Shown one piece after another: positions 5,788-58,157 of a DNA stretch of 64,000 nt (within the stretch, counting starts at the first letter, position 1; every line of letters begins with the position of its first letter). The DNA lies in NCBI GenBank assembly GCA_015163875.1, contig JAAOIH010000001.1, forward strand, positions 17,641-81,640. The letters are read 5' to 3'. The notes under the pieces are model-generated. The model did not search any database. It was given only the letters and a program-made list of their open reading frames with translations, and had not been told where the DNA came from. The position numbers were made by a program, and so were the translations under genes. The DNA is from Bdellovibrionales bacterium (lineage in GTDB: Bacteria > Bdellovibrionota > Bdellovibrionia > Bdellovibrionales > UBA1609).

Positions 5788-5809
5788 AAAAACCAAAACT
5801 AAACCAACA

Positions 5810-7906: not shown

Positions 7907-7935
7907 AAAAATCAAATATATTTTATGGAGGCATT

Positions 7936-9816: not shown

Positions 9817-9820
9817 AACT

Positions 9821-10162: not shown

Positions 10163-10267
10163 CAGTATATTTAACAGCCTATTTAGCACCTAGACCAAGC
10201 TATATCTAGACCCATTATTTAAGAATAAAGCTTGACCCTTTTAGGCATAAAATTTAATAAGATAGCC

Positions 10268-10693: not shown

Positions 10694-10699
10694 TTAGTT

Positions 10700-11798: not shown

Positions 11799-11809
11799 GG
11801 AGACTAGGC

Positions 11810-13324
11810 ATGGACATATCTATTCGCATTGACGAAATCAGCGGTATCTTAAAAGATCAAATTGCAAACTATGATCAAAAATTAAATTTTGAAGAAGTCG
11901 GAACAGTTTTATCTGTTGGAGACGGTGTTGCACAAATTCATGGCTTAGAAAATGTTATGGTAGGCGAGCTTGTTCAATTTTCTTCAGACTTATATGGCAT
12001 GGCTTTAAACTTAACCGAACACTCTGTTGGTGTTGTTGTATTTGGCGAAGACAAAAGTATTAAAGAGGGTGACGAAGTAAAAAGAACAAAAAAAATTGTA
12101 CGAGTTCCAGTAGGTGACGCATTACTTGGAAGAGTTGTAGATGTTTTAGGAAGACCAATTGACGGAAAGGGAGCAATTGATACTAAAGAATTTAAATTAA
12201 TAGAAGTAAAAGCCCCCGGAGTTATGACCCGTTACCCAGTTAGTGAACCAATGCAAACTGGAATTAAAGCAATTGATTCTATGATTCCAATTGGTCGCGG
12301 ACAAAGAGAATTAATTATTGGAGACCGACAAACTGGAAAAACTGCAATTACTATTGATACTATTATTAATCAAAAAGGCCAGGATGTTCATTGTTTTTAT
12401 GTAGCAATTGGGCAAAAACAATCAACAGTTGCACAAGTTGTTGAAAAATTAACTCAAGCAGGCGCAATGGAATACACAACAGTTGTTGCAGCAACTGCTT
12501 CGCAATCTGCACCATTACAATTTTTAGCTCCGTTTTCTGGCTGTGCAATGGCAGAATATTATAGAGATAACGGCAAGCATGCTTTAATTATTTATGATGA
12601 CCTTACAAAACAGGCACAAGCCTATAGACAATTATCTTTATTATTAAGAAGACCTCCGGGAAGAGAAGCTTTTCCAGGTGATGTTTTTTATATTCACTCA
12701 AGACTTTTAGAAAGAGCTTGTAAATTAAATAAAGACGAAGGCGGAGGATCACTAACTGCGCTTCCAATTATTGAAACTCAAGCTGGAGATATTTCTGCGT
12801 ACATTCCAACTAATGTAATTTCAATTACTGATGGTCAGATTTTTTTAGAAACTGATTTATTTCATAAAGGAATTCGCCCAGCCGTGAATGTTGGAAAGTC
12901 TGTTTCTCGAGTGGGAGGTGATGCACAAATTAAAGCAATGAAGCAAGTTGCTGGAACTTTAAAATTATCTTTAGCTCAATTTAGAGAACTAGAAGCATTT
13001 TCTGCCTTTGCATCTGATCTGGACAAAACAACTCAAGCACAATTAGCCCGAGGCCGACGAATGGTTGAGGTGTTAAAACAACCTCAATACACTCCATACA
13101 AAGTTTATGATCAAATTATTTCTATTTTTGCAGTAACAAATGGATACATGGACGAAGTTAAAGAATCAGATTCTGCAGAGTATGAAAAACAATTGTTAGA
13201 GTTTATTCAACAGAATCATAAAAATATTATTACAGATTTAGAAAAAAGTAATAAAATTACCGACGAGATTAAAAAAGAATTAGTAGATGCTTTAGAAAAA
13301 TTTAAAGTTATTTTTGCAAAGTAA
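11810..13324 (+). CDS. atpA: F-type ATP synthase subunit alpha
   Basis: Walker A GDRQTGKT. Highly conserved alpha-subunit sequence throughout. Confidence 0.97.
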
Positions 13325-13357
13325 ATGTTAAGTGAAATAAAAAAGGATTTGTAATAT

Positions 13358-14230
13358 ATGTCTAGCACCAAAGACATTCGTAGCCGAATTACCAGCGTTA
13401 CTAATACGCAGCAGATTACCAAAGCAATGAAAATGGTTTCTGCTGCAAAACTTAGTAAGGCTCAGGCTCATATTACAAATATGCGACCGTATGCTAAACA
13501 AATGAAATCTTTAATTTCTCGCTTAATTAATAACCCAAAAGTTAGTCACCCATTTTTAGAAAAAAAAGAAAAGATAGAAAATATTTTATTAGTAGTAGTT
13601 AGTGGAGACAGGGGATTGTGCGGCGGCTTTAATACAACAGTAAACCGATTTGCAGAAACTTTTTTAAAAGAAAATAAAAAAAAATATAACAGCATTGATT
13701 TATTTTTAATTGGAAAAAAATCTATAGATTATTTTAAAGCAAGAGAAATTAAATCTGTAGACAGTGTTAATAATATTTCTAAAAACTTATCATACAAAAT
13801 TGCAGTTGGGGTAGCTGATAAATTAATGCACTTTTTTAAATCTGGAAAGTATGACGAAATTCATTTTGTTTATAACGAATTTAAATCTGTTATATCTCAA
13901 GAAAGAGCTGTTGAAAAAATATTTCCAATAGAATATAAAAATAGCGAAATAGATCAAACAAAAATATTATCTGATGATTATATTTTTGAACCAGAAGTTG
14001 TAAAATTTTTAGAAGAATTATTAGTTAGACATTTTACAAGCCAAGTTTACAGATGCTTAAGTGAAAGTGTTGCCGCAGAATATGCAGCCAGAATGACTGC
14101 AATGGATAGCGCAACTAACAACGCCAACGACATGATACATTCGTTAACTTTAACTTATAATAAATTAAGACAAGCAAATATTACAAAAGAGTTAATGGAA
14201 ATTGTTAGTGGCGCAGAGGCAGTTAAGTAA
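13358..14230 (+). CDS. atpG: F-type ATP synthase subunit gamma
   Basis: N-terminal IRSRITSVTNTQQITKAMKMVSAAKL and C-terminal ITKELMEIVSGAEA helices of gamma. Confidence 0.95.
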   Translation: MSSTKDIRSRITSVTNTQQITKAMKMVSAAKLSKAQAHITNMRPYAKQMKSLISRLINNPKVSHPFLEKKEKIENILLVVVSGDRGLCGGFNTTVNRFAETFLKENKKKYNSIDLFLIGKKSIDYFKAREIKSVDSVNNISKNLSYKIAVGVADKLMHFFKSGKYDEIHFVYNEFKSVISQERAVEKIFPIEYKNSEIDQTKILSDDYIFEPEVVKFLEELLVRHFTSQVYRCLSESVAAEYAARMTAMDSATNNANDMIHSLTLTYNKLRQANITKELMEIVSGAEAVK

Positions 14231-14266
14231 AAATAAAATTTACATAAATTTTAAAAAAAAATGTAA

Positions 14267-15685
<1,419 letters not shown>

Positions 15686-15687
15686 TT

Positions 15688-15945
15688 ATGCAATTAAATT
15701 TAGTATCACCAAACAAATTATTTTTTAGTAATAAAAAAGTAAACAGCGTTTCTGTAGTTTCAACCCAAGGCGGGCTTCAAATTTTAAAGGGCCACTCCCC
15801 ATTGTTAACTACTTTGGGAAGGGGATTTTTAAAGTTTTACGACACTGATAAAAAAGATTTTTTTTCTTATTTTGTTGATGGCGGTTATTTAGAGGTGTCT
15901 CCAAAAGGAGATATTTTTATTTTAGCAGAAAAAGTTGAATCTTAA
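15688..15945 (+). CDS. atpC: F-type ATP synthase subunit epsilon, N-terminal beta-sandwich domain only (85 aa)
   Basis: Position after atpD. Beta-sandwich pattern (LQILKGHSPLLTTLGRGFLKF...GGYLEV). No C-terminal helical hairpin is encoded; downstream frames are full of stops. Confidence 0.85.
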   Translation: MQLNLVSPNKLFFSNKKVNSVSVVSTQGGLQILKGHSPLLTTLGRGFLKFYDTDKKDFFSYFVDGGYLEVSPKGDIFILAEKVES

Positions 15946-16050
15946 TTTGTGTAAATCTATAAATTAAAAAACATATTTGGGTTAAGTTTATTTATTAACT
16001 AGCCCTTTCTCTGTTTTTGTGTACAAAAGTTTAGTTATTTTATTCTAATA

Positions 16051-17034
16051 TTGAATTATAACATATATAAGACGAAAATATTAATTGTGAAAAGTTTTAA
16101 ATATTTTTTGTCTTTATTTTTTATTTTGTTTAGTCAAAATGTTCTTGCACAAGAAATAACTTTAGTTTGGGGAGACACTCTATCTAAATTAATTTTTCAA
16201 TATCATGATCGCGATATTAGTAATTGGAAAGAAGTTTTGCCTTTGTATTTATCTTTAAATCCACAAATTAAAAATGAAAATTTAATTTATGCAGGAAGTA
16301 AACTCAACATACCCTCCCAAGAAGATGTTGTAGATTATTTAAATTCTAAAAATACATTTGGCCTTGAAGATATTGGAGTTTTGTTTGCCGGAAAAAATAA
16401 AAAACAAAGAAGATCATTAATAGATCATGTTGCAAATCCATGGTCTTTAGAATTACAAGCAGGCCCTTATTTTAAATTAAATAAAAATAATTCTAGCTTA
16501 GAGTATTTTTCCAAGGGCGGCTTTGATATAAAAGCAAAAGGAGTTTATCATTTTAATGATAAATATTCCGTTGGGGTTATTTATAGATACTCCAAAAAAT
16601 CTTATGAACTATCATCCTCACTACCTTTGTCTGGCATTTATTTAGAAGCTTATATGAATTGGAATAAGTTTATTGTTTCTGCACTTTTTGGCTCCCAAGA
16701 AAGGTTAACTTATAATAAAGCAACTATAAAATTATTAACAGCAAGCCATTTTGATTATGGAATTGGACTTCACTATAGATTACTTCAAACAAAAAATTTT
16801 GAAGGATTAGTTGGGCTAAACTCTAAGCTGTTTACAAAATCTACTTCTTTTAAAAATGGAATGAATAAAAATGGATATGCAGTAATGGCAAGCACAATTT
16901 TTAATTATAATTTTTGGAAAAATCATTTAATTGGATTAGAGTCATCATACAGTCTATCTAAAGGAAAAAATAAAAAACACGAATCTGGCTTAGAAGATTT
17001 TGTAACAAGATTAAGCCTTCAGTTTAGTTTTTGA
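16051..17034 (+). CDS. LysM-domain protein with predicted C-terminal outer-membrane beta-barrel
   Basis: Signal peptide (KYFLSLFFILFSQNVLA-QE). LysM (ITLVWGDTLSKLI...NLIYAGSKLNIP). Alternating-hydrophobicity strands ending in LSLQFSF (C-terminal Phe OMP signature). GTG 16087 is an alternative start. Confidence 0.6.
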   Translation: MNYNIYKTKILIVKSFKYFLSLFFILFSQNVLAQEITLVWGDTLSKLIFQYHDRDISNWKEVLPLYLSLNPQIKNENLIYAGSKLNIPSQEDVVDYLNSKNTFGLEDIGVLFAGKNKKQRRSLIDHVANPWSLELQAGPYFKLNKNNSSLEYFSKGGFDIKAKGVYHFNDKYSVGVIYRYSKKSYELSSSLPLSGIYLEAYMNWNKFIVSALFGSQERLTYNKATIKLLTASHFDYGIGLHYRLLQTKNFEGLVGLNSKLFTKSTSFKNGMNKNGYAVMASTIFNYNFWKNHLIGLESSYSLSKGKNKKHESGLEDFVTRLSLQFSF

Positions 17035-17054
17035 TTAATCTTTGGATAGTCATT

Positions 17055-20000
17055 TTATAAAATTATCATCACCCCTTGTAACTTCTGATAAACAACTTCC
17101 CACTTAGTATTTTTTACTTTTATTTTTACTACATTATTTTTACTTAATTGATATTGATCTGGTTGTTTTTGTATTAACCTAATTAAATGCTCTGCGTAAG
17201 GGTTATTATTAGTAAGCTTTAAACTTAGACTAGTATTTTTTAAATTAACAGAAATAATTCCAGTTTTTTTTGCAAAATTTTTAATAAGTATCAGGCCCAT
17301 TAAATTATAAATTTCTACAGGAGGTTTGCTAAAATTATTTCTAAATTCTTCTTCTAATAAATCTATGTCATTTATATTTTGAATATTAGAAATCTTTTTA
17401 TAATAATATAATCTTGTTCTAATATCAGAAATATATGTTTGTGGTATTAAACAAGCATAAGGCAAGTAAATATCTGGCTCTGATTTCATTTTTGTGTCAC
17501 CAACATATTTTTCACTAGTTTTTAAATTTTGTTTTTCTTTTGCTTTGTTAATAGCCTCTTCTAATAATTCTAAATAAAGCTCGTAACCGATAGCATTTAA
17601 AGTTCCAGATTGCTCTTCACCCAAAAGATCGCCCGCACCCCTAAGCTCCAAATCTTTTTGTGCTATTTGAATTCCGCTTCCTAATTTAGTGTTATCGCGA
17701 ATGCTGTACAATCTTTCTAAAGCTTTTTCGTCAATATTTTTTTGTGAAGGTATTAATAAATAACAATAAGCCCTATTATTAGATCTACCAACCCTGCCCC
17801 TAATTTGATAAAGCTGAGACAGGCCAAACATATTGGCATTATTAATAATTAAAGTATTTGCGTTTGGTATATCTAGCCCTGATTCAATAATTGTAGTGCA
17901 AACTAAAACATCAATTTTATTATTTGCAAAATCTAACATAGATTGTTCAAGTTGATTTTCTGGCATTTGCCCGTGTGCAAAAGCAACCCTAGCATTGGGG
18001 ACTAATTCTTTTATTTCTAAACTAATAAGTTCTATATTTTTAATTTTATTATTTAAAAAAAAGACCTGACCATCTCTTTTCATTTCTTGTTCAATGGCAT
18101 CTTTAATAATATTTTTATTATAAGAATTAATAAAAGTTCTAATAGATAATCTATTTTGAGGGGGAGTTTGAATTAAATTAATATCTTTTAAGCCTAAAAG
18201 GCTAAAATTTAATGTTCTTGGTATTGGAGTTGCAGACAAAGTTAAAGTGTCTATATTTTGTTTAATGTATTTTATTTTTTCTTTGTGCTTTACACCAAAC
18301 TTTTGTTCTTCGTCGATAATTAATAATCCTAATTTTTTATATTCTATATTAGAGCTTAATAATTTATGTGTTCCAATTATAACATCTATTTTTCCATTTT
18401 TTAATTTATCAATCACATCTTTTTGTTTTTTTTGAGGAACAAATCTATTTAAAGACTCAACTTCTACGCCAAATTTTTTAAGCCTTTCTCTAAAATGTTT
18501 GTGATGCTGAAAAGACAAAACAGTTGTAGGAACTAAAATAGCAACTTGTTTGCCGCACTCTATAGCCCTTGCGCAAGCCCTTATTGCGACTTCTGTTTTT
18601 CCAAACCCAACATCTCCACAAATTAGCCGGTCCATTGGAGTTTCACTTAAAAAATCAGATAAAACACTGTCAATTGCTTTTGCCTGATCCTTTGTTTCTT
18701 TATAAGGAAAGCTATCTTCAATACTTTTATAAAGCTTGCCACTTTTAAAAAACGCAGGCCGCTTAATACTTTTTCTATTTGCATAAAGCTCTAGCAGTTC
18801 TAAAGAAATATCTTGAAGGCGCTTTGTAACTTGTGTTTTTGCGTTACTCCATTTGTTGCCGCCAAGCTTGTCTAAAATACTAGTGTTGCCAATATATTTT
18901 TTTATATTATTTATTTTATAAACAGGAATATAAAGTCGCTCTTTATCTTTGTACTCTAGGTGTATAAATTCCATTTCTTGGTCCGAAATATTAATAAATT
19001 TTAACCCAAGATACCTTCCAATTCCGTGCTGAATGTGTGTAATTAAATCTCCCTGATTTAATGCATCTAAACTAATTGAACTTAATTGTAATTTTAATTT
19101 TTCTTGAGAGTGGTGCGTGACATAAGTTTTTAAGTTTAAAATTTCTTCGGCCTTTAATAAAACTAATTTTTCTTTTTCTAATATAAAGCTACTACTAATT
19201 GTTTTTTGTATTATGTGAGTTTCGCAGTCCCGCACATCACCTATAGATTCAATTTCTGATAAAGGAAGATCCATTTCTAAAAATAAATTTTTTATTTCAA
19301 TACTTTGGCTGTGCTTACTAGAAGATAAAATAATTTGTATGTTTTTGTCTTTCCATTTTTTTATTTGTTCTTTTAAATAAAATTTTTTATCCAATAAGTT
19401 TTTTTGTTTTATTTTTTGCACAAAAGTTTTTAAATGTTTTCCAGATTCTGGAAGCTCTACCAAATGTTCTGCATTTAAACTATTTTGATTTAAATAAATA
19501 ATATTATTTATTTTTTTATCATTAAGTAATTCTTTATTTATTTTATCTGATAAATTAAAATTCCATATACAAAGATTTTTTGAAAAATAATTTAATAAAG
19601 TATCCGACATTTTTGTATTGTTTTTTATATTCCATATAGAATCTTGTAAAATATTTTTAATATTAATTTGACTATCTAAGTCTAAAGTAAATATATCAGT
19701 TACCTTATCTCCAAAAAGTTCACATCTAGTTGGGCTTGTATTTTGTGGCGAAAAAAAATCTAAAGTACCAGATTTAATACTAAACTGACCAACCCCCTCA
19801 ACAATCAGGCTAGATTCATAACCATTATTTAGCATAAAATGCTCTACAGATTTTGGAAAAGAGTAATCTTTTGTGACAGCGGTCTGGTTATGCTTATATT
19901 CATTAATAGGAGGGGCAATTTTTAGGCTATTTATATGTAATAAAAAAATAGCATTTTTTTCTGCATTAATAATAGTTTTTAAAAAATTTAAAATTGACAA

Positions 20001-37523: not shown

Positions 37524-37967
37524 TTATTTTTGTAATTTTTTACAAATTAAATAATCTGTAGATATTTTTCCAGGGCCCCAAAGTATTATAATAAATAATG
37601 CCAATCCCCAAAGCTTGTGATCGTAAAAACCACCACTCCACAAGGCGGGATAAGAAATTACCGCAACAGCATTTAAAATAAATAATTTTAAAGCAGAAAG
37701 TCTGGATAATATTCCTAAAACCAAAACAACTGGTAAAACTATTTCGCCAGCAGTTGCAAGATAAGCTGCAATATGAGGGCTGATTAGCGGGACTTTGTAT
37801 TCTTCTTCAAATAAATACAAAGTAGCGTCCCAACCAGATATTTTATTTAAGCCTGCTTTAAAAAAAATCCAACCAACATAAATCCTAATTGATAATAAAA
37901 AAATTGGCTGCAGATAATCAGATATTTTATTAAAAATGTTATTGTAATAAATTAAAAACTTTTTCAT
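37524..37967 (-). CDS. DoxX-family membrane protein (fourth gene of the RiPP operon)
   Basis: DoxX pattern (LLSIRIYVGWIFFKAGLNKI...GEIVLPVVLVLGILSRLSAL), 4 TMs. 19-nt gap after the DUF2063 gene. Confidence 0.8.
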   Translation of the reverse strand: MKKFLIYYNNIFNKISDYLQPIFLLSIRIYVGWIFFKAGLNKISGWDATLYLFEEEYKVPLISPHIAAYLATAGEIVLPVVLVLGILSRLSALKLFILNAVAVISYPALWSGGFYDHKLWGLALFIIILWGPGKISTDYLICKKLQK

Positions 37968-37986
37968 TTTGTTATCCTTTGTAAAA

Positions 37987-38757
37987 TTATTTTTTTAACA
38001 TAAAACTTTTTTGTTCTAAAAAAAATAACAACTCATTTTGTAAATTAAAACTGTCGTTTATCCTTATTGCTTTTTTTGTAGAGTAAACTATGCCCTTATT
38101 ATTGTTGATTTCTGTTAAAAAAGCAAAACTTTCTTTTTTAATGGCTAGTATTTGTGGAGTAAAATTATTACGAACAATTAAAAAATAAAATTTTTTGTTT
38201 TCTTGTATTTTTAATGTGTCAATTTTTGTTAATTTAATTATTTTATCTAATGGGTATGAAGATAAAATTAAATGACAAGACACATGAAGTCCAAGCCTTG
38301 TTAAAAGCGAATCTTTTTTCTGCTCTTTTGCAAATTCAACAATATTAAGACATTCTGTGTTTTTTGAATAGTAAGATAGTGATAATAAAAATTCTAATTT
38401 AGCCAAATCTGGCAAATAAAGAAGGTTTTTTGTATGTTTATAATGTTTTAAAAAATTACTAAACTCATGCCCATAATTTTGTATGCTTTCTTTTTTGGGA
38501 GGGTAAGCTTTAATGTAATCACGGGCGGTTTGCTCAAAGGTCTTTTTTCCAATAATTTCAAAAGTTTTAGAATAAGAAGTTTTTAAACTATCTATATGAG
38601 TAGAAAAAAAATTATTTTGATAAATTTGAATAAGTTGCAAGCTAGATAAATTATGATGGCTTGTGTATTTACCAAGTAGATTTGTATTTTTGCAAACCTC
38701 GCCAGTATTAAATAAATCTTTAATAAAATATTTTTGTATAGTTTTTATAGTTTTCAT
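37987..38757 (-). CDS. DUF2063-family protein (MbnC/BufC-like partner of the MNIO enzyme)
   Basis: IQIYQNNFFSTHIDSLKTSYSKTFEIIGKKTFEQTARDYIKAYPP...YLPDLAKLEFLLS matches the DUF2063 N-terminal pattern (vYrNn...L...fP...lG...F...yl...P...dlArlE). Confidence 0.8.
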   Translation of the reverse strand: MKTIKTIQKYFIKDLFNTGEVCKNTNLLGKYTSHHNLSSLQLIQIYQNNFFSTHIDSLKTSYSKTFEIIGKKTFEQTARDYIKAYPPKKESIQNYGHEFSNFLKHYKHTKNLLYLPDLAKLEFLLSLSYYSKNTECLNIVEFAKEQKKDSLLTRLGLHVSCHLILSSYPLDKIIKLTKIDTLKIQENKKFYFLIVRNNFTPQILAIKKESFAFLTEINNNKGIVYSTKKAIRINDSFNLQNELLFFLEQKSFMLKK

Positions 38758-38778
38758 TTTTAATAAATATTTTTGTAA

Positions 38779-39528
38779 TCAACAGATACTATTTATAATA
38801 TCTTGGGCTTTGTTTTTTTCATTTAATAATATTTGTATGTCTGGAATATTAGTGTCCCACTCTATTAGTGTATGCGCTTTTTTAAATATTTTAATGCTTT
38901 TAGAAAAAAGATCCCAAACCTCTTTTGATACAGAAGATCCATGATCGTCTATATAAATATTTATATTATTTTCTAAATTAATTTGGTGACCAGCTAAATG
39001 AATTTCTTGAACATCTAGATCTTTAATTTTATTTAAATATTCTAATGGATCAAAATTGTGATTTTTAGAGTTAACAAAAATATTATTTATATCTAACAAA
39101 ACTCCACAACCACTTTGACTACTGGCGCTTGATAAAAACTGCCACTCTGACATATCAGATTCAGAAAAACTTAAATAACTAGACGGGTTTTCTATTAAAA
39201 TTTTTTTATTAAGTAAGCTTTGTGCTTGGTCAATATTGTTAACAAAATTTTTTAAACTAAGCTTTGTGTATGGTATTGGCAAAAGATCATGTGTAAATAT
39301 ATTATCTAACCCGCTCCAGCTCATATGATCAGATATTAAAAAAGGCTGAAGTTTATCAGAAAGTTTTTTTATTTTTTTTGCGTAATCTAAATTAATAGAC
39401 TGACAAGACCCAAGCGAAAAACCAAGGCAGTGAAAGCTAATAGGGTAGTGTTTTCTTAATTTGTAAAGACAATCTATATGTTTTCCACCATCAGAAAAAT
39501 AATTTTCTGGATGAATTTCTAACCACAT
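38779..39528 (-). CDS. DUF692 / MNIO (MbnB-family multinuclear non-heme iron oxidase), main ORF lacking the conserved N-terminus
   Basis: WLEIHPENYF, ISFHCLGFSLGS, ISDHMSWSG, HDLLPIPYT, ILIENPSSYLSF, SEWQFL, GCGVLLDINNIFVNSKNHNFDP, EIHLAGH, IDDHGSSVSKEVW, TLIEWD are the DUF692 TIM-barrel signatures. No SD precedes ATG 39528. Confidence 0.85.
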   Translation of the reverse strand: MWLEIHPENYFSDGGKHIDCLYKLRKHYPISFHCLGFSLGSCQSINLDYAKKIKKLSDKLQPFLISDHMSWSGLDNIFTHDLLPIPYTKLSLKNFVNNIDQAQSLLNKKILIENPSSYLSFSESDMSEWQFLSSASSQSGCGVLLDINNIFVNSKNHNFDPLEYLNKIKDLDVQEIHLAGHQINLENNINIYIDDHGSSVSKEVWDLFSKSIKIFKKAHTLIEWDTNIPDIQILLNEKNKAQDIINSIC

Positions 39529-39549
39529 ATTTTTATATTTTTTTTTTTA

Positions 39550-39600
39550 AAAAATTTCTAAATGTGGAGACCGCAACCCAATGCCACATTCTTGCGGCAT
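39550..39600 (-). pseudogene. 17-codon N-terminal segment of the DUF692/MNIO gene, in frame with the main ORF but cut off by one TAA (39547-39549)
   Basis: Minus strand reads ATG CCG CAA GAA TGT GGC ATT GGG TTG CGG TCT CCA CAT TTA GAA ATT TTT TAA = MPQECGIGLRSPHLEIF-stop, then KKKYKN-MWLEIHPENYF in the same frame. GIGLR is the conserved first strand of DUF692 enzymes. Confidence 0.65.
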
Positions 39601-39644
39601 TGGTTTTTTTATAGAATTTTGCATTCTATTGTTAACAATTATAT

Positions 39645-39908
39645 TTATTTTTTCTTAATAGTGTTAACTAAGCTTCCGCCAACTATTTTTTTGCACAAAC
39701 CTTTTGGAACTACTATAAACGCATCTTTTTGTGCATTTTTTTTAGCACTACCAGCGCAAGAAGTGGTATTAGTTGAGCAATCGTTTTGGCCAGCTTTTAC
39801 TATTCCGTAGCATTTTTCTTTTTTTGCAGCACTTGCATCTTTGGCCTGTGTAGTGATAGCCAAAAGAGCAATTGCGGATATGCTTGCAGCAATTTGTTTT
39901 TTAGTCAT
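39645..39908 (-). CDS. DUF2282-family secreted Cys-containing precursor peptide (bufferin BufA1-like)
   Basis: Sec signal [27 protein letters not shown], then [24 protein letters not shown]...[13 protein letters not shown] with four Cys in DUF2282 spacing. GGAG RBS. Confidence 0.85.
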
Positions 39909-50315: not shown

Positions 50316-51392
50316 ATGGGCTCTCAAAAAAATATCAACGAAGTTCAAGTTTTAGCAACGGCAGAATATATATGGTTAGACGGAGCCAGCCCAACACAAG
50401 ATATTAGAACTAAAACACGAATCTTAAGTACACATTCTGCAAATAAAATTGAAGACTTTCCAGAGTGGGGATTTGATGGGTCATCAACATGGCAGGCACA
50501 TGGCTCTCATTCTGATTGCGTACTAAAACCTGTTTATTTTTGTTTAAATCCATTAAGAACAATGGCCGGAAATCATTATGTAGTTGTGTGTGAAGTTTAC
50601 GAGTCTGACGGACAGCCTCATAGCTCTAACGCCAGACATAATTTAAAAGAATTATTAAATAAATCTAAAGGAACAAATCCGTGGATAGGCTTTGAACAAG
50701 AATATACATTTTTTGAATACACTCGTCCGCTGGGATGGCCAGACAAAGGCGGTTTTCCAGAACCACAAGGCCCATTTTATTGTGGGGTTGGCGAAAATAA
50801 AGTTTTTGGCAGAGATATTGTAGAAGAACATATGGATGTGTGCCAAAGAGCCGGCTTAAGTTTTTATGGAATTAACGCAGAGGTAATGCCCTCACAATGG
50901 GAATTTCAAGTAGGATATCGCGGTGTAAGCAGCGAAGCAAGTGACCCACTAAGCATCTCTGATCAAATGTGGATTGCTAGATATATGTTAAAAATGGTGG
51001 CAGAAAAATATGGAGTAATTGTATCTTTTAGCAATAAGCCAATGCCTGGTGATTGGAATGGCGCTGGAATGCACACTAATTTTTCTACAAATGCCACAAG
51101 AGAAAAAGGAACTGGCTTAGATGCAATAAACAAAGTTGTTGAAAATCTTAAAAAAAATCACAGTAAAGACATTCGCAAATATGGAGCAGGCCTAGAAGAA
51201 AGACTTACAGGCCTTCACGAAACTTGTCACATAGGTCAATTTAGATCTGGAGTTTCTGACAGAGGGGCATCTATTAGAATTCCACTTCAAACATCACAAA
51301 ATTCTTGCGGATATTTTGAAGACAGAAGGCCTGGAGCAAATGCTGATCCATATAAAGTTTCTGCATGTCTTGTTGAGGCGGCGTGTTTTTAG
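50316..51392 (+). CDS. glnII: glutamine synthetase type II (eukaryote-like GSII)
   Basis: 358 aa. AEYIWLDG N-terminus, GAGMHTNFST, RPGANADPY motifs characteristic of GSII rather than GSI. Confidence 0.9.
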   Translation: MGSQKNINEVQVLATAEYIWLDGASPTQDIRTKTRILSTHSANKIEDFPEWGFDGSSTWQAHGSHSDCVLKPVYFCLNPLRTMAGNHYVVVCEVYESDGQPHSSNARHNLKELLNKSKGTNPWIGFEQEYTFFEYTRPLGWPDKGGFPEPQGPFYCGVGENKVFGRDIVEEHMDVCQRAGLSFYGINAEVMPSQWEFQVGYRGVSSEASDPLSISDQMWIARYMLKMVAEKYGVIVSFSNKPMPGDWNGAGMHTNFSTNATREKGTGLDAINKVVENLKKNHSKDIRKYGAGLEERLTGLHETCHIGQFRSGVSDRGASIRIPLQTSQNSCGYFEDRRPGANADPYKVSACLVEAACF

Positions 51393-51445
51393 TTTTTAAT
51401 AAAATAAAATAAAATAAAAAATAAATTAATCAAAAGAAGTTTATT

Positions 51446-51793
51446 ATGGTACAAAATATAGGAATTAAAATAGAAGATAATAAAAACGCCAAAGTTGTTA
51501 GCATTGAAGGACTTTTAGATGCGTCAATGGCAAATGCAGTTAGCGAAAGACTGCATGATATTTTAGAGGGCGAATGCAAAAAATTAGTTTTTGACTTAAG
51601 TAGCCTTGAATACATATCTAGCGCAGGCCTTCGTGTTTTATTATATTCTGCTAAAAAAATGCAATCAAAAAACGGACAAACATCTCTTTGTGATATTCCA
51701 AAAAGTGTTCAAAGAGTATTAGAAATTAGCGGATTAAATACTATTTTTTCAATTCATAAAAATATAGACACAGCAATTTCCTCTATGAAATAA
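51446..51793 (+). CDS. STAS-domain anti-sigma-factor antagonist (SpoIIAA/RsbV-like)
   Basis: 115 aa. DLSSLEYISSAGLRVL contains the conserved phosphorylatable Ser context (DxSxVxxIDSxGL). Confidence 0.85.
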   Translation: MVQNIGIKIEDNKNAKVVSIEGLLDASMANAVSERLHDILEGECKKLVFDLSSLEYISSAGLRVLLYSAKKMQSKNGQTSLCDIPKSVQRVLEISGLNTIFSIHKNIDTAISSMK

Positions 51794-51804
51794 ATTTAAA
51801 AAAT

Positions 51805-53085
51805 ATGTCTATTCAGATCTTAGAAATTAACTATATTTTAAATACATTTCTTCTTCTTTTTTCTGCAACACTAGTTATGTGGATGGCCGCTGGTTTTTGC
51901 ATGTTAGAAAGCGGGCTTGTTCGCTCTAAAAGTACAGCAGTAATTTGTTTAAAAAATATTGTCCTATATGCAGGCGCCTGCGCTTGTTATTATTTATTAG
52001 GATATAATTTAATGTTTAAAGATGTCGGTCTATGGATAGGAACTTTAGATTTTTTTGTTTTTCCAAATATTGAGGAACTAAAACTTTTAAGCGGAGCTAA
52101 TGTTAATTTACAAAAACTATTATCTACTGGATCTTTTTCTTTAGCGATAGTATTTTTTCAAATGGTATTTGTTGCAACTACTGCATCTATTATATCTGGA
52201 GCTTTAGCAGAAAGAGTTAAGATGTGGTCTTTTTTTATTTTTATAGCTGTTTTTTGCATTTTTATTTATCCAACAGTTGGCGCATGGACTTGGGGGAATG
52301 GCTGGCTATCACAAATGGGATTTAAAGATTTTGCAGGATCAACTATTGTTCACTCAGCCGGAGGCTGGGCTGCTTTATTTGGTGCATGGCTAGTGGGGCC
52401 ACGATCTGGAAAATATAATAAAAATGGAAAAGTTGTTTCGACTCCAGCGTCCAATGTTCCACTTGCAACATTGGGAACTTTTATTCTTTGGTTCGGATGG
52501 CTAGGATTTAACGGAGGATCTGTGTTAAGCTTAAGCAGCGTTTTTGATGTTGCAACAATGGCAATTGTTTTTTTTAATACTAATTTAGCAGCAGTTGGAG
52601 GGGTACTATCTGCATTGGGCTTAAGTTTATTACTTTATAAACAAGTAAAAGTTCTTTTAGTTTTAAACGGAGCAATAGCAGGGCTAGTAGCAATTACAGC
52701 GGGACCAGATATTTCTAATCCAATATTTGCATTTATAATTGGCTCTATAGGAGGGGTTTTATCAACATTGGCCATTCCTGTTTTAGAAAAATTTAAAATA
52801 GATGATGTTGTTGGAGCAGTTCCAGCACACTTAGTTTCTGGAATTTGGGGAACATTAGCTGTTGGAATCTTTACAGAAGCATCTTTTAAAATACAATTAA
52901 TAGGAGTTGTAAGTGTAGGACTTTTTGTATTAACAAGTTCTGCAATTGCATGGTTAATTATTAAGTGGACACTGGGGCTTAGAGTTTCATCTAGCTCAGA
53001 ATTTTTAGGACAAGATATTACAGAGCTTGGAATAGAGGCTTACCCAGAATTTTTAAACATAGATGATTTACATAATAAACAATAG
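51805..53085 (+). CDS. amt: ammonium transporter Amt
   Basis: 11-TM Amt/MEP pattern (FAGSTIVHSAGGWAALFGAWLVGPR, LGTFILWFGWLGFNGGS, DDVVGAVPAHLVSGIWGTLAVG). Confidence 0.95.
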   Translation: MSIQILEINYILNTFLLLFSATLVMWMAAGFCMLESGLVRSKSTAVICLKNIVLYAGACACYYLLGYNLMFKDVGLWIGTLDFFVFPNIEELKLLSGANVNLQKLLSTGSFSLAIVFFQMVFVATTASIISGALAERVKMWSFFIFIAVFCIFIYPTVGAWTWGNGWLSQMGFKDFAGSTIVHSAGGWAALFGAWLVGPRSGKYNKNGKVVSTPASNVPLATLGTFILWFGWLGFNGGSVLSLSSVFDVATMAIVFFNTNLAAVGGVLSALGLSLLLYKQVKVLLVLNGAIAGLVAITAGPDISNPIFAFIIGSIGGVLSTLAIPVLEKFKIDDVVGAVPAHLVSGIWGTLAVGIFTEASFKIQLIGVVSVGLFVLTSSAIAWLIIKWTLGLRVSSSSEFLGQDITELGIEAYPEFLNIDDLHNKQ

Positions 53086-53093
53086 GAATACAA

Positions 53094-53537
53094 ATGGACT
53101 TAAAAAATACAATTAAATCAAATTGCATACTATCTTATAATTTAAAAAAAATAGAAGATTTGCAAATCATGATGGATTTGTTTCAAGATTATCATAATGC
53201 ACACGCAATGAATGAAAAAGTATTTTTTGATTTTAAACTTTGTATAGAAGAAGTTATAGTAAATATATTTATCCATGGGTATAAAGAATTTAAAAAAGAA
53301 CCAGATATAAATTTATGTTTATATAAAACAGAAGACTGCTTTGTTGCTGATGTAATTGATAATGCAAAAACTTTTAATCCAGTAAGCGATTTTATACAAA
53401 TGAATTTTGCAACCAGCATAGAAAAAAAACCAATTGGAGGCCTTGGCATACGCTTATTAAAAAATCTTTCTGATGATTTAGAATATATCCCAAGAGAAAG
53501 CGGAAACCAATTAAAAATTTATAAAAAATATAATTAG
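53094..53537 (+). CDS. anti-sigma regulatory factor-type Ser/Thr kinase (RsbW/SpoIIAB-like HATPase)
   Basis: 147 aa. N-box-like EEVIVNIFIHGY and G-box GGLGIRLL. Confidence 0.75.
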   Translation: MDLKNTIKSNCILSYNLKKIEDLQIMMDLFQDYHNAHAMNEKVFFDFKLCIEEVIVNIFIHGYKEFKKEPDINLCLYKTEDCFVADVIDNAKTFNPVSDFIQMNFATSIEKKPIGGLGIRLLKNLSDDLEYIPRESGNQLKIYKKYN

Positions 53538-53555
53538 TTTTTAAGGAATTAAATT

Positions 53556-54716
53556 ATGGTAAAAATTTTAGTGGTAGATGACGAAGTAGACATGGAGTCA
53601 TTGATTACACAAAAGTTTAGAAAAAAACTTCACAGTAAAGAGTGGGAAATGATATTCCGCCACAACGGAGAGCAGGCCCTAGATGTTTTACAAAAAGATC
53701 CAACAATTGATATTGTTTTGTCTGATATAAATATGCCACAAATGAACGGACTAACTCTTACTCAAAAAATTCAAGAAGCTGGATTTGATATACGAACAGT
53801 AATTGTTTCAGCTTATGGAGATATTGAAAATATAAGAACGGCAATGAATAACGGAGCATTTGATTTTATTACTAAGCCAATTAATTTTAAAGACATGGAG
53901 CACACAATAACAAGAGGCTTTGATAATCTTTCTAAAATGAAAGATGCAATGCAATCTAAAAATGATTTGATTCATTTAAAAAAAGAATTAAATCTAGCTC
54001 ATAAAATTCAACAGTCTATACTTCCAAATGATTTTAATTTAGATAAAAATTGTGAAATACATGCAGTTATGACTCCCGCAAAAGAAATTGGTGGTGATTT
54101 TTATGATTTTTTTAAAATAGATAACGATCACATTGCACTTGTAGTTGCAGATGTTTCTGGCAAAGGCGTCGCAGCAGCTTTATTTGCTCTGATTACACAA
54201 ACAGTATTAAATGGATTAAGTATGTCTAATAATCCAAGCGAAGTGTGTAAAGTTATTAAAGAGGTTAATAAAAAAAGTTGTATAAATAATGAAAGCTTAA
54301 TGTTTGTTACACTTTTTTACGGAGTGCTTAACACAAAAACAGGCAAATTTACTTACACTAATGCAGGACACAACCCACCCTTTATAATTAAAAATGATTT
54401 TAAAGTTGAAGAGCTTGAGCTAACTGACGGAATTCCATTGGGGATATCTATAGATAAAGATTTTTTAGAAAAAACAATAGAATTAAAACCAGAAGAAACA
54501 TTATTTATTTATACAGACGGAGTAACAGAGTCTATGAATTCTGATAACCAAGAGTTTGGAGAATCTAGATTAATAAAAATTTTATCAGAGCCGTGCAAAA
54601 AAGATATTAAATCTCTTAATACAAAAGTACACCAAAGTGTTAAAGATTTTGCAGGCGACACTCCACAGTCTGATGATTTAACTTATCTTGCTATTAAATA
54701 TTTGCCAAAACAATAA
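53556..54716 (+). CDS. response-regulator receiver fused to PP2C/SpoIIE phosphatase (RsbU-like)
   Basis: Receiver (ILVVDDE...LSDINMPQMNG...ITKP) plus PP2C (GGDFYDFF, VADVSGKGVAAAL, YTDGVTE, DDLTYLA). Confidence 0.9.
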   Translation: MVKILVVDDEVDMESLITQKFRKKLHSKEWEMIFRHNGEQALDVLQKDPTIDIVLSDINMPQMNGLTLTQKIQEAGFDIRTVIVSAYGDIENIRTAMNNGAFDFITKPINFKDMEHTITRGFDNLSKMKDAMQSKNDLIHLKKELNLAHKIQQSILPNDFNLDKNCEIHAVMTPAKEIGGDFYDFFKIDNDHIALVVADVSGKGVAAALFALITQTVLNGLSMSNNPSEVCKVIKEVNKKSCINNESLMFVTLFYGVLNTKTGKFTYTNAGHNPPFIIKNDFKVEELELTDGIPLGISIDKDFLEKTIELKPEETLFIYTDGVTESMNSDNQEFGESRLIKILSEPCKKDIKSLNTKVHQSVKDFAGDTPQSDDLTYLAIKYLPKQ

Positions 54717-54727
54717 AGGAATATATT

Positions 54728-55915
54728 TTGATTTTTCGTTTTTTATTTTTTATTAACTTTTTTTTTTCAAATTTTGCAATTGCAAATTCTGATTTTGTAG
54801 AAGGAGTAACTAAGACAGAAATATTTTTTGGACAATCTGCCGCATTAACGGGCCCTGCAAAAAGCTTAGGATTAAATATGCAAAAAGGCATTTTATCAGC
54901 ATTTGTAGAAGTAAATAATAATGGCGGGGTTAATGGCAGAAAACTTAGACTTAAAAGTTTAGACGATCACTACGAACCAGAAACGGCCATTAAAAATATT
55001 TACCACCTAATAGATAAAGAAAAAGTTTTTTCTTTAATTGGGGGAGTTGGTACGCCAACTTCAAAAGCAATCGTCCCCATTATTAAAAAATCAAAAAAAC
55101 TTTATATTGGCCCCCTTACAGGAGCCTCTTTTTTAAGATCATCCCATGTTAACACAGTTGTTAATATAAGAAGCTCTTACTTTCAAGAAATTAAAGAAAT
55201 GGTTTTAAGGTTAAAAAATGATTTAAAAATTAAACGAATTGCAATCTTTTATCAAAACGACTCTTATGGGATTGACGGCTTAAATGCTTTAGAAAAATCT
55301 GTAAAAGAGATTAATAAAGGATTAAAAATTGTTTCTAGAGGGTCTTATCTCAGAAACACAATGGCTATTAAAACCGCACTTTTAAATATTAAAAAAGCTA
55401 AGCCAGATGCTATTATTATTATTGGAACTTATTCACCTGCAGCACATTTTATAAAATGGTCAGAAAAGTTAAAAATTAAATCAAAACTTTTTTTATCTGT
55501 TTCTTTTGTTGGAGTTTCTGAATTGGCAAAAAAACTTAAAAATAGCAAAAGTCTTGTTTTTGTAACTCAGGTAGTTCCGTTTCCCTACAATAAAAAGGGG
55601 CGTCTTTTAAAAAATTATCACAGGGCAATGAAAAAAATTAAAAGCTCTAATAAAATAGGATTTGTTAGTTTAGAGGGCTACATTGTTGGAAGAATTGTAA
55701 TTGAAGCCCTTAAAAGAGCCGGAAAAAAATTAACAAACAAAAGTTTTAAAAAAGTTTTTAAATCAAAAAAAAGTAATTTTAATATCGATGGATTAAGGTT
55801 GTCTTATACTAAAAAAAATAATCAAGGATCTAATAAAGTGTTTCTTACAAGAATTTTTAAAGGAAGGGTTTTGCCTTTAAAAAATTTAAAAGCATTTTAT
55901 AAAAAAATAAAATAA
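54728..55915 (+). CDS. periplasmic substrate-binding protein, LivJ/branched-chain amino acid-binding type
   Basis: Signal peptide. FGQSAALTGPAKSLGLNMQKGILSAFVEVNNNGGVNGRKLRL is the type I periplasmic-binding signature. TTG start. Confidence 0.8.
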   Translation: MIFRFLFFINFFFSNFAIANSDFVEGVTKTEIFFGQSAALTGPAKSLGLNMQKGILSAFVEVNNNGGVNGRKLRLKSLDDHYEPETAIKNIYHLIDKEKVFSLIGGVGTPTSKAIVPIIKKSKKLYIGPLTGASFLRSSHVNTVVNIRSSYFQEIKEMVLRLKNDLKIKRIAIFYQNDSYGIDGLNALEKSVKEINKGLKIVSRGSYLRNTMAIKTALLNIKKAKPDAIIIIGTYSPAAHFIKWSEKLKIKSKLFLSVSFVGVSELAKKLKNSKSLVFVTQVVPFPYNKKGRLLKNYHRAMKKIKSSNKIGFVSLEGYIVGRIVIEALKRAGKKLTNKSFKKVFKSKKSNFNIDGLRLSYTKKNNQGSNKVFLTRIFKGRVLPLKNLKAFYKKIK

Positions 55916-55961
55916 ATTATTTTTACACAAAACTTTTATAATGTTTGATTCTTAATTTTTA

Positions 55962-58157
55962 TTATTTAGGCAATTTTAAAATAAATTTAGTAAATTCACC
56001 AAGCTTGCTTTCAAGCGTCATTGTGCCAGAGTGTTTTTGCATAATATCATTAGACAAAGAAAGCCCAAGGCCAGTGCCTTTGTCGGTTGGTTTTGTTGTA
56101 AAAAATGGATCAAAAACTTTTTGCTGAATTTCTTTAGAAATTCCAGGGCCGTTGTCTTTAATAGAAATTTCTATAAAATTTTTGTCGCCTTTATTTATTA
56201 ATCTAGTTTTAATTTCAATGATGGGCTTGTAATTATTTTTTTCTTCTTCTGTTGAAAATTTTTGTATTTTATCTTCTATTGCATCGCAGGAGTTGCCTAC
56301 TAAATTTAAAATAACTCTTGATATATCTTGAGGGTATATTTTTATTTTACCTAAGTTATCTTCATAATCTTTTTTAAATTCAACATCAAATCCAGAATTT
56401 ACAACAACTTTTCCTTTATAGGCCAGATTTATTGATCTATCTAAAAATGGATGTAGATCAATGTCTTCTTTTTTGTCATTTGCTGATTGCCCGCTGGAAT
56501 GCTGCAACATTCCAGTTACAATTTTATCAGTTCTTTGTCCGTGAGAATAAATTTTTTCTAAATTTTCGCCCAAGTCTTTCATTAATAAATTAATAAAGCT
56601 AATTTTTTCTTTTTCTAAAGTAGACTCTATTGATTTTAATTCCTCGACAAGTTCTTTTATAATATCTTTAGAAAGTAAAGAAAAATTATTAATAAAATTT
56701 AACGGATTTTTAATTTCATGTGCAACACCAGCTACTAGCCCACCTAAAGAAGCCAGTTTTTCTTGCATGACCATTTGTTTTTGAGCATTTTTTAATTTTT
56801 TAATAATGTCTTCTAGCTGATCATTTTTTTCTTGAATTTCTTTTGCTAATTTTTCTACTAAATTTATTCTTTGTGCCTCTATTGCATATTTACGAAACAC
56901 CTCTAATGATTTTGCCATATCTGCAATTTCGTCACTTCCACTAACAACTAATGGAATTTTTAAATCGCCATTAGACATTGTCAGCATTGTTTTAGATAAA
57001 GTTTTAATTCTTCCAATTAAGTATTTTTTTACAAATAAAATTCCTATCAATAAAGCTAAAAAAATAGTTATAATATTTAAAATTAAAAGTTGATTTTGAT
57101 TATTATAAATAGTTTTTTCAAAAACTTTAGATATATTATGACCATCAAGCTCTATACTTGTAATTAATATACCAGTTTGCTTAGATAGCAAAGTTACAAA
57201 ATGCCTATTTTTTTCTAAGTATTTTTTTTGTTGCTTTTGTTCTTGAAAAATTTTGCTTAATAATTTAAAAACCCCCTGATCTTTTATGTCAAAAGATTTG
57301 CTATTTTTTTTTCCAAAACCGCTTTGATCTAAAAAATAAATTTTTTCAGATATTTTTTTATATAAATTATGATTAGATAAAAACTTTAATGCATGCTGAG
57401 AATTTCTTAAAGCCGCACGAAACCTTTCTTTAATTGGTTGAATTAAATCAGCCTTTGATAGTTGAGAAACCTGAAGTAGCAAATTGGACAAAATATTACT
57501 TTGTGTATCTAAAGAAAGCAGCCCTCTATAGTAAGAAATAGATTCTGGGTTAGATCTAATATTAACTGGCACAGCTTTTTTTTGTTTTAAAGTTTTAAAT
57601 CCAGTGTGTAAAAAAAAAGTTTGGTTATCTATTGCAGATATTAATATTCTCCCAACTTCTCTGGATTCTTTAGTTACCTTAGATAAAAGAATGTTTAGAT
57701 CTTTTTTCCAGATTAAGGTGTTGCTAACTGACCTTTCTAAATTTTTTAAGTTTTCTAATAAAGATTGTGATAAAATTTGAATGTTGCCGACAGTGCCTTT
57801 TTTAGAATTATGTGTAGTTTGTTTTAGTTTATTTAATATATCAGACAACCCGTTGCTACTTTTGTTTATAATAATTTTTGTTTTATTTATTTCTTTTTCT
57901 GTTTGTGAAGAAAAAAGTCTTGGGGCAACCTCTGTTAAAGCGGCGCTTTCTTGGCCAATTTTTATGGCTAGCGAAAGTTCAGGAATTCTTTCTTCTGTAA
58001 TAGCCCTCTGAATTCCGTTCATTTCTATTAAAGATTTCCATCCCAAAAAACTGGCTATAAATATCAAGCCAACAAATATAAATAAACCAAAATACATTTG
58101 AACTCCAATAGTCCATTTAATTGGCAAATTTAAAAATAAATGTTTAAGAGATCTCAT
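55962..58157 (-). CDS. sensor histidine kinase with large periplasmic domain and HAMP
   Basis: Two TMs flanking about 330 aa, HAMP, H-box AHEIKNPLNF, HATPase (DNGPGI, GTGLGLS). Confidence 0.9.
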   Translation of the reverse strand: MRSLKHLFLNLPIKWTIGVQMYFGLFIFVGLIFIASFLGWKSLIEMNGIQRAITEERIPELSLAIKIGQESAALTEVAPRLFSSQTEKEINKTKIIINKSSNGLSDILNKLKQTTHNSKKGTVGNIQILSQSLLENLKNLERSVSNTLIWKKDLNILLSKVTKESREVGRILISAIDNQTFFLHTGFKTLKQKKAVPVNIRSNPESISYYRGLLSLDTQSNILSNLLLQVSQLSKADLIQPIKERFRAALRNSQHALKFLSNHNLYKKISEKIYFLDQSGFGKKNSKSFDIKDQGVFKLLSKIFQEQKQQKKYLEKNRHFVTLLSKQTGILITSIELDGHNISKVFEKTIYNNQNQLLILNIITIFLALLIGILFVKKYLIGRIKTLSKTMLTMSNGDLKIPLVVSGSDEIADMAKSLEVFRKYAIEAQRINLVEKLAKEIQEKNDQLEDIIKKLKNAQKQMVMQEKLASLGGLVAGVAHEIKNPLNFINNFSLLSKDIIKELVEELKSIESTLEKEKISFINLLMKDLGENLEKIYSHGQRTDKIVTGMLQHSSGQSANDKKEDIDLHPFLDRSINLAYKGKVVVNSGFDVEFKKDYEDNLGKIKIYPQDISRVILNLVGNSCDAIEDKIQKFSTEEEKNNYKPIIEIKTRLINKGDKNFIEISIKDNGPGISKEIQQKVFDPFFTTKPTDKGTGLGLSLSNDIMQKHSGTMTLESKLGEFTKFILKLPK

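Follow-up and report, generated by a model that had tools for sequence, protein, structure and literature searches.

What does a partner switch act on when no sigma factor is encoded with it and an ammonium transporter gene sits between its antagonist and its kinase? The question is raised by the 64-kb window (the whole stretch of 64,000 nucleotides analyzed here) from the metagenome-assembled genome (MAG) of a 'Bdellovibrionales bacterium', with a low GC content of about 30%. The locus encodes a type II glutamine synthetase (GSII), a single-domain STAS protein, an Amt-family ammonium transporter, an RsbW-like serine kinase, a receiver-PP2C phosphatase, a LivJ-type solute-binding protein and a membrane histidine kinase (Table 1). 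An earlier interpretation made from the letters alone, the sequence-only reading, had placed seven genes here. Open reading frames occupy exactly the same coordinates, Pfam and NCBIfam confirmed their domains, and an independent assembly, from another sequencing run and with genes called by others, has the identical seven genes. The window module is one copy of a widespread five-gene cassette consisting of STAS, receiver-PP2C, RsbW-like kinase, orphan LivJ-type binding protein and histidine kinase. We tentatively favor the view that the window holds a local rearrangement of this cassette, functionally coupled to ammonium uptake, with protein-level control of Amt as its likeliest output.

Recurrence of the cassette beside amt

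A scan of a genome collection with the window Amt gave 80 loci, and cassette genes adjoin the transporter in 14 of these. They include members of the Bdellovibrionales (L001, L002), Oligoflexales (L003, L004), Latescibacterota (L008, L010, L021, L031) and Caldilineaceae (L016, L019, L022, L029), and an acidobacteriotal locus with a cassette-type STAS gene alone just upstream of amt (L020). In 24 other loci of the 80, glnK is directly upstream of amt; these are alphaproteobacterial but for one Geobacteraceae locus. The glnK-amt and cassette-amt neighborhoods show no overlap within the set.

An Amt-independent test was based on the receiver-PP2C profile, which scores at least 120 database proteins above 660 bits (near-full-score orthologues). 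The orthologues were clustered, and nine from separate clusters were looked up. The intact STAS/receiver-PP2C/RsbW/binding protein/kinase cassette was found at all nine loci, and amt was directly adjacent in seven. The kinase gene is followed by amt in L169 and, with an insertion sequence between them, in L173. In L168, L170, and L174, amt sits inside an ATP-grasp/Amt/Alpha-E/transglutaminase gene set. L167 has an amt-glnK pair upstream and a second amt downstream, and L172 has amt-glnK upstream. No amt was found within 9 kb of the cassette in L166 and L171. Given one to three amt genes per genome of a few Mb, we estimate the adjacency in seven of nine to be orders of magnitude above chance. 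Both surveys thus support the functional tie between switch and Amt that the sequence-only reading had proposed.

A metagenome scan with the receiver-PP2C alignment used patterns in the receiver domain; 77 of its 80 loci were generic response regulators, and L082–L084 were useful. In L082, a sponge-type metagenome contig, the cassette is convergent with amt. A homologue search with the RsbW-like kinase, run with a word pre-filter, returned four proteins, those of L162 and L163 among them.

The cassette-amt loci span Bdellovibrionota, Latescibacterota, Chloroflexota, and Acidobacteriota. Because the gene set recurs beside amt in unrelated phyla, the arrangement is far beyond chance. There are at least six gene orders: STAS-amt-RsbW; amt-RsbW-STAS; RsbW and amt divergent; histidine kinase-amt; histidine kinase convergent with amt; and amt-glnK-STAS. 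The commonest position of amt is directly after the kinase gene, and the cassette-adjacent amt genes fall into two Amt subfamilies. So many gene orders argue that proximity itself is under selection, and against inheritance of a frozen operon. L001 and L002 keep amt-RsbW-STAS-PP2C, their two-component input is replaced by a membrane sensor fused to PP2C, and a glutaminase gene is next. It is thus the core switch, not the two-component input, that stays with amt. The cassette appears to be common in several uncultured lineages, with many of the MAGs apparently symbiont-associated.

In L170, a Na+/H+ exchanger gene with CBS domains lies between the STAS and receiver-PP2C genes, mirroring the amt insertion of the window. 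It seems that transporter genes can be accommodated in the slot behind the STAS gene.

The sequence-only reading had stressed that amt lies between the antagonist and its kinase. This order holds for the window and for L162, which has the window gene order and a kinase 67% identical to that of the window; it is not found elsewhere. L163 and L164 have the same chromosomal context as the window (AsnRS, DeoC, RNase G, GSII through L21, L27, Obg) and a kinase 57% identical to the window's. Their order is GSII-STAS-RsbW-receiver-PP2C without amt, with a clean 55-nt spacer where the window has amt. A non-conserved amt insertion had been named in advance as a result that would count against the proposal, and L163/L164 supply one, but the wider data suggest that amt was lost secondarily in this lineage. 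In the other Bdellovibrionota/Oligoflexia loci, amt is beside the kinase gene throughout and the Amts form one clade, which makes loss in L163 more parsimonious than a recent insertion in the window. The GSII protein scores 434.9 bits with the NCBIfam GlnII model, under the 500-bit cutoff. Its gene adjoins the module in the window, as had been noted, and this adjacency is confined to a small clade made up of the window, L162, and L163/L164.

Gene layout, proposed input chain, and predicted switch core

The gaps between the STAS, amt, kinase, receiver-PP2C, and binding-protein genes are 11, 8, 18, and 11 nt by coordinates, in line with the 8–18 nt given earlier. A terminator scan of the cluster found no terminator-like hairpin in any gap between these five co-directional genes. 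With such short gaps, the proposed single transcript from the STAS gene to the binding-protein gene is probable. The GSII gene ends 53 nt upstream of the STAS gene and is possibly co-transcribed with the operon. In a promoter scan of the cluster, promoter-like sites were at chance level. Terminator-like sites reached approximately three times the shuffled expectation; every one is inside a coding region and none is intergenic, so that the scan is of no help in placing transcript ends. No relevant riboswitch, of the glutamine type or another, was found when the cluster was scanned against Rfam.

The absence of glnK from the window and of a sigma factor from the cluster, both claimed earlier, was borne out. 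No PII gene was found in the 64 kb by tblastn with E. coli GlnK and GlnB. Probes of the same stretch with RpoD, RpoE, SigF, and RpoN gave one spurious weak match, inside the ATP-synthase operon.

The binding protein scores 155.4 bits with Pfam Peripla_BP_6 and has weak similarity to the LivJ and UrtA models of NCBIfam. Read by eye, its N-terminus looks like a signal peptide. Similarity does not identify its ligand: the name of the top PDB match, 4kv7, mentions no tested ligand, and the LivJ and UrtA matches are weak. There are no ABC permease or ATPase genes near the binding-protein gene in the window, and no HAAT-family ABC permease or ATPase genes in any cassette locus examined. In other phyla, the binding-protein gene overlaps the histidine-kinase gene by 4 bp; the latter gene is convergent in the window and co-directional in most other lineages. 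The binding protein is presumed to be the co-receptor of the histidine kinase.

The periplasmic region of the histidine kinase comprises approximately 300 residues, is all-helical, and is followed by HAMP, HisKA, and HATPase_c domains. Pfam TorS_sensor_domain (PF21689) is the top match for this region in five of six orthologues; it scores 41.5 bits in L167, whereas the 20.5 bits of the window are below the cutoff. The sensor domain was modeled with AlphaFold from a 13-sequence alignment (pLDDT 77, pTM 0.70). The six best PDB fold matches of this model are all TorS sensor domains (3o1i, 3o1h, 3o1j, 3i9y, 3i9w; E 2.7e-7 to 2.6e-5), with target-normalised TM-scores of 0.80–0.88 for five and 0.66 for 3i9w. 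A PDB sequence-profile search with the sensor domain gave no TorS match; the fold search alone found TorS. In those crystal structures, the TorS domain is bound to the binding protein TorT, so that a chain from binding protein to histidine kinase to receiver-PP2C is well supported as a TorT/TorS-like input. The histidine kinase and binding protein had been put forward as the input before, and this part of the proposal is strengthened by the orphan binding protein and the TorS fold.

The STAS protein scores 75.6 bits with Pfam STAS and 85.2 bits with TIGR00377, and its top PDB sequence matches are TM1442 and SpoIIAA. It contains the motif YISSAGLRVL, already pointed out as a phosphorylatable serine context. 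The second serine of this motif is S59, which aligns with the phosphorylated Ser58 of B. subtilis SpoIIAA. SpoIIAA and 12 cassette STAS proteins all share S59, G61, and L62, and Ser59 is the predicted phospho-acceptor. A C-terminal segment of the NCBIfam glutaminase model (positions 322–404 of 429) aligns to the window STAS protein, which suggests that glutaminases with a fused STAS domain may exist.

The RsbW-like kinase scores 63.9 bits with Pfam HATPase_c_2. Its similarity to the NCBIfam RsbW/SpoIIAB models is weak (33 bits against a 145-bit cutoff for RsbW), and its sole meaningful PDB sequence match is RsbW 6m36. The N-box residues E53/N57, Asp89 of the G1 box, and G116/G118 of the G2 box are invariant in 17 cassette kinase orthologues, RsbW, and SpoIIAB; G115 of the G2 box is nearly invariant across them. 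The G1 box of the window lineage is DNA in place of DxG, a Gly-to-Ala change, but most orthologues have Gly. The receiver-PP2C protein scores 159 bits with Pfam SpoIIE, and its receiver residues D8/D9/D57/S85/K107 and PP2C residues D181/D199/D321/D373/D374 are invariant in eight orthologues. A Ser-bearing STAS protein, GHKL kinase motifs, and PP2C metal-binding aspartates are all present, and no sigma gene lies in the 64-kb window or, apart from an unrelated sigma/anti-sigma pair in L170, next to the cassette in related loci. From these conserved residues, and by analogy with known systems, the core is predicted to work as a partner switch.

Metagenome loci L085–L102 contain receiver domains 50–60% identical to that of the receiver-PP2C protein, mostly in tandem receiver-receiver genes. 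Many of these genes are beside kinases approximately 40% identical to the C-terminal half of the window histidine kinase. These loci are a related two-component family with a different output.

The Amt protein scores 325.8 bits with Pfam Ammonium_transp (PF00909), 343.2 bits with TIGR00836 against a cutoff of 343.3, and 505.6 bits with TIGR03644 ('marine subtype'), just below the 514-bit cutoff. It retains the equivalents of E. coli AmtB F107, W148, D160, H168, F215, S219, and H318, which include the Phe gate and the twin His. Pfam finds no fused signaling domain or extra domain. The signature of ammonium-receptor Amts, N1/N2, is QX6EX15NX2D[F/T]X54-60TX2[S/T] (PMC11152129), and neither it nor its parts match the window Amt. 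A role as an ammonium receptor was therefore rejected; judged by its residues, the protein looks like a transporter and not like a dedicated receptor.

Cassette-linked Amts have an acidic C-terminal tail (...EAYPEFVLMPEE-acidic) in place of the ...EAYPEFGxGSQKI of GlnK-linked Amts. Across L001–L080 and L162–L174, the tail past the conserved EAYPEF is GxGSQK[IVL] in GlnK-linked Amts and acidic (VLMPEE..DDE) in most other clades, with or without an adjacent cassette. Among the unlinked Amts, several from alpha- and gammaproteobacteria end in a GxGSQ-type tail or another short one. The acidic tail was rejected as a mark of cassette-linked Amts because it also occurs in Amts without an adjacent cassette.

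What the switch may act on

No sigma gene lies beside the cassette in the window or in around 25 related loci across phyla, with one exception. In L170, a gene for an extracytoplasmic function (ECF) sigma factor with its own zf-HC2 anti-sigma lies approximately 5 kb upstream of the cassette. The recurring neighbors of the cassette are amt (in most loci), glnK, GSII, a kidney-type glutaminase gene, and a circularly permuted ATP-grasp/Alpha-E/transglutaminase set. All of these are nitrogen or amide related, which points to a role in nitrogen signaling with Amt as the likeliest point of action. Control of Amt is the likeliest output because amt is the only gene that recurrently accompanies the cassette. 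Transporters regulated by STAS domains are known from other systems (SLC26/SulP, MlaB), as are partner switches whose outputs are not sigma factors (HsbA, SiaC, SypA, BtrV).

In the mechanism that we propose, the secreted LivJ-type binding protein would capture a periplasmic ligand, probably a nitrogen compound, and dock on the histidine kinase at its TorS-like sensor domain. This kinase would in turn determine whether the receiver domain of the PP2C phosphatase is phosphorylated. Fold and residue conservation support these input steps. The RsbW-like kinase would phosphorylate STAS Ser59, and PP2C would remove the phosphate. Unphosphorylated STAS would bind the kinase, which would release its second partner. 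No sigma factor is co-encoded to fill this place, and STAS or the freed kinase may instead control Amt at the protein level. Ammonium uptake would in this way be coupled to an external nitrogen cue, alongside PII and not replacing it. Direct gating of Amt by the STAS/kinase pair is plausible but, in our judgment, somewhat unlikely. A slightly less probable proposal is that the pair is an unrecognised post-translational regulator of Amt, a phosphorylation-driven functional analogue of the PII plug that works beside GlnK. Commanded by the binding protein and the TorS-like kinase, it would let an external cue, and not internal 2-oxoglutarate/glutamine, gate uptake.

Several observations weigh against protein-level control of Amt. 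Cassettes without an adjacent amt occur in L163/L164, L166, and L171. The cassette STAS gene of L167 and L172 directly follows a canonical amt-glnK pair, so that the Amts encoded there are already provided with a PII regulator. PII and the cassette thus occur together, and the cassette is no general substitute for PII. The earlier wording that the switch stands 'instead' of glnK fails as a general statement, and replacement of PII as a rule was rejected on the same two loci. The Amt protein offers no extra domain, and the sole group feature, the acidic tail, is common to Amts without an adjacent cassette. Other nitrogen genes adjoin the cassette as possible targets, namely those for GSII, glutaminase, and the ATP-grasp/Alpha-E/transglutaminase proteins.

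A target sigma factor could also be encoded elsewhere in the genome, although we think this unlikely. The locus would then be a canonical partner switch in which the RsbW-like protein is the anti-sigma factor, and amt and glnII would merely be members of the regulon or be co-expressed with the sensor genes. By sequence, the kinase is closest to RsbW/SpoIIAB and the STAS protein to RsbV/SpoIIAA, and orphan rsbV-rsbW pairs distant from a sigma gene are known. A receiver-PP2C that feeds RsbV/RsbW is the sigma-B design of B. cereus RsbK/RsbY. Three lineages, moreover, have the cassette without amt. However, the kinase is far below the RsbW cutoff, and the only sigma gene near the cassette in the window and around 25 related loci, that of L170, comes with its own anti-sigma. 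Regulon membership alone does not account for amt staying adjacent through many rearrangements.

In a rather improbable alternative, Amt would be the input. The transporter would report ammonium flux or occupancy to the histidine kinase or the switch proteins, comparable to DctA/DcuS co-sensing or to AmtB sequestering GlnK, and the output would be elsewhere. The frequent position of amt directly after the kinase gene agrees with this. Histidine kinases with transporters as co-sensors are well known (PMC5703999 mentions DctA/DcuS), and Amt proteins have been repurposed as ammonium receptors (PMC11152129). However, the window Amt has kept all transport residues and lacks N1/N2, and the kinase is already equipped with a dedicated sensor of TorS type and with a binding protein. 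In addition, L001 and L002 keep amt-RsbW-STAS though the histidine kinase is absent.

We attach similarly little weight to another nitrogen target, with amt just a co-functioning neighbor. The target would be GSII, glutaminase, the ATP-grasp/Alpha-E/transglutaminase amidoligase set, or a second-messenger enzyme. The GSII gene is beside the STAS gene in the window, in L162, and also in L163, which lacks amt there; a glutaminase gene follows the PP2C gene in L001/L002; and at least six loci have amt flanked by ATP-grasp/Alpha-E/transglutaminase genes behind the cassette. The alignment of the glutaminase model to the STAS protein is a further point in its favor. Nevertheless, each of these partners is limited to one lineage or subset, and only amt is common to most arrangements.

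That amt landed by chance in an unrelated partner-switch operon, without functional relationship, is scarcely credible: a sister lineage does have the same operon without amt, and L170 does have a different transporter gene after STAS, but the neighborhood data effectively refute it, with amt adjacent in seven of nine independently ascertained cassettes, adjacency in at least three phyla, different gene orders, and two Amt subfamilies, and a chance of less than about 3% (our own estimate) that an 18-kb window holds amt when a genome of 2–5 Mb has one to three.

Relation to known systems and the surrounding window

Among the systems closest in mechanism, together with TorT/TorS and the Gram-negative partner switches with non-sigma outputs, is RsbK-RsbY-RsbV-RsbW-sigmaB of B. 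cereus, where a histidine kinase acts on a receiver-PP2C and through it on a phosphorylatable STAS protein, opposed by an RsbW-type kinase. The window has all the catalytic motifs. Unlike the B. cereus system, its operon has no nearby sigB-like gene, and its genomic partner is an ammonium transporter. RsbK-type proteins are hybrid kinases, whereas the window histidine kinase has a TorS-like periplasmic sensor and is paired with a binding protein.

Partner switches with non-sigma outputs are represented by HptB-HsbR-HsbA and SiaABCD of P. aeruginosa, SypE-SypA of V. fischeri, BtrUVW of Bordetella, and CrsR-CrsA of Shewanella. These Gram-negative systems resemble the window in having STAS, kinase, and PP2C components, often with a receiver, and their outputs are enzymes, secretion systems, or other regulators (see also PMC10120452). 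They differ in that kinase, receiver, and PP2C are usually fused, and none is known to be linked to Amt, a LivJ-type binding protein, or nitrogen genes.

As in the TorT-TorS system for trimethylamine N-oxide, the window pairs a binding protein that has no transporter of its own with a kinase whose periplasmic domain is all-helical and of the TorS fold. Both the helical bundle and an adjacent secreted binding protein without ABC partners are found here. The window binding protein, however, is not of the TorT family but of the LivJ/HAAT family (Peripla_BP_6). The kinase is no hybrid phosphorelay kinase, and its cognate regulator is a PP2C phosphatase and not the DNA-binding TorR.

The module is neither a PII-Amt pair nor a sensor Amt. 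Like GlnK(PII)-AmtB, it has a small cytoplasmic signaling protein encoded beside amt, with a modification state that would be set by a nitrogen-related signal. A single Amt subfamily contains clades with glnK beside amt and separate clades with the cassette beside it. STAS and PII have unrelated folds, the window lacks a PII gene, and two cassettes share a locus with amt-glnK. The sensor Amts Ks-Amt5 and Sd-Amt1 also associate an Amt module with signal-transduction components, but each is a fusion with a histidine kinase or a diguanylate cyclase and has N1/N2, whereas the window Amt is stand-alone (PMC11152129).

Full-text literature searches turned up no account of an ammonium transporter with a linked STAS/RsbW/PP2C module, in agreement with the sequence-only reading, which knew of no characterized example. 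The locus combines known building blocks with a conserved genomic partner not found described. Regulation of bacterial Amt proteins is understood almost entirely via GlnK/PII, and many amt genes are unpaired with glnK, including most 'marine' subtype members outside Alphaproteobacteria. The cassette, conserved across phyla, links amt to a periplasmic ligand sensor and a partner switch. It is a testable candidate either for control of ammonium uptake without PII or for a new pathway of nitrogen sensing. The number of partner switches without a co-encoded sigma factor is growing, and the cassette brings in one with a link to nitrogen.

Table 1. Features of the window and of related loci, with coordinates numbered within each locus.
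Locus	Feature	Coordinates	Strand	Domains or remarks
Window	Type II glutamine synthetase (GSII, GlnII-like), 358 aa	50316..51392	+	Pfam Gln-synt_N + Gln-synt_C
Window	Single-domain STAS protein (RsbV/SpoIIAA-type antagonist), 115 aa	51446..51793	+	Pfam STAS, TIGR00377
Window	Amt-family ammonium transporter, 426 aa	51805..53085	+	Pfam Ammonium_transp
Window	RsbW/SpoIIAB-like GHKL serine kinase, 147 aa	53094..53537	+	Pfam HATPase_c_2
Window	Receiver-PP2C (SpoIIE-family) phosphatase, 386 aa	53556..54716	+	Pfam Response_reg + SpoIIE
Window	LivJ/HAAT-type solute-binding protein, 395 aa	54728..55915	+	Pfam Peripla_BP_6; TTG start
Window	Membrane histidine kinase, 731 aa	55962..58157	-	Pfam HAMP, HisKA, HATPase_c
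Window	Origin-proximal gene set, apparently followed by the ATP-synthase operon	1-15685		yidC, mnmE, mnmG, rsmG, parA, parB
Window	Bufferin-like RiPP operon	37524-39908	-	
Window	RiPP precursor, 87 aa	39645-39908		Signal peptide, four Cys, '...SCAG'
Window	MbnB/TglH/ChrH enzyme	38779-39528		DUF692
Window	DUF2063 protein	37987-38757		DUF2063
Window	DoxX protein	37524-37967		DoxX
L167	ATP-grasp/Amt/Alpha-E/transglutaminase set	8164-12947		
L170	ATP-grasp/Amt/Alpha-E/transglutaminase set	13963-18830		
L174	ATP-grasp/Amt/Alpha-E/transglutaminase set	14162-18892		
L168	ATP-grasp/Amt/Alpha-E/transglutaminase set	14195-18094		
L021, L031	ATP-grasp/Amt/Alpha-E/transglutaminase set			
L170	Na+/H+ exchanger gene between STAS and receiver-PP2C genes	6725-10170		CBS domains
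L001	Kidney-type glutaminase near Amt	11107-12666		EF-hand_14 + Glutaminase + ankyrin repeats
L046	Kidney-type glutaminase near Amt	7345-9507		EF-hand_14 + Glutaminase + ankyrin repeats
L002, L047	Kidney-type glutaminase near Amt			EF-hand_14 + Glutaminase + ankyrin repeats

In several phyla, the cassette-linked amt lies within the circularly permuted ATP-grasp/Amt/Alpha-E/transglutaminase set directly behind the kinase gene. We found no discussion of an ammonium transporter inside such a predicted amidoligase/peptidase operon. The kidney-type glutaminase near Amt is eukaryote-like; its gene comes after the PP2C gene in Bdellovibrionales MAGs and directly after amt in Pelagibius.

A Pfam scan of 20 further open reading frames of the window identified housekeeping genes, for example yidC, mnmE, mnmG, parAB, and grpE. 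The origin-proximal set at the start of the window places the nitrogen cluster approximately 50 kb from the likely replication origin. From the order and sizes of the open reading frames, the ATP-synthase operon appears to come next after this set. The window also contains an operon that resembles those for bufferins, which are ribosomally synthesized and post-translationally modified peptides (RiPPs); its components are listed in Table 1.

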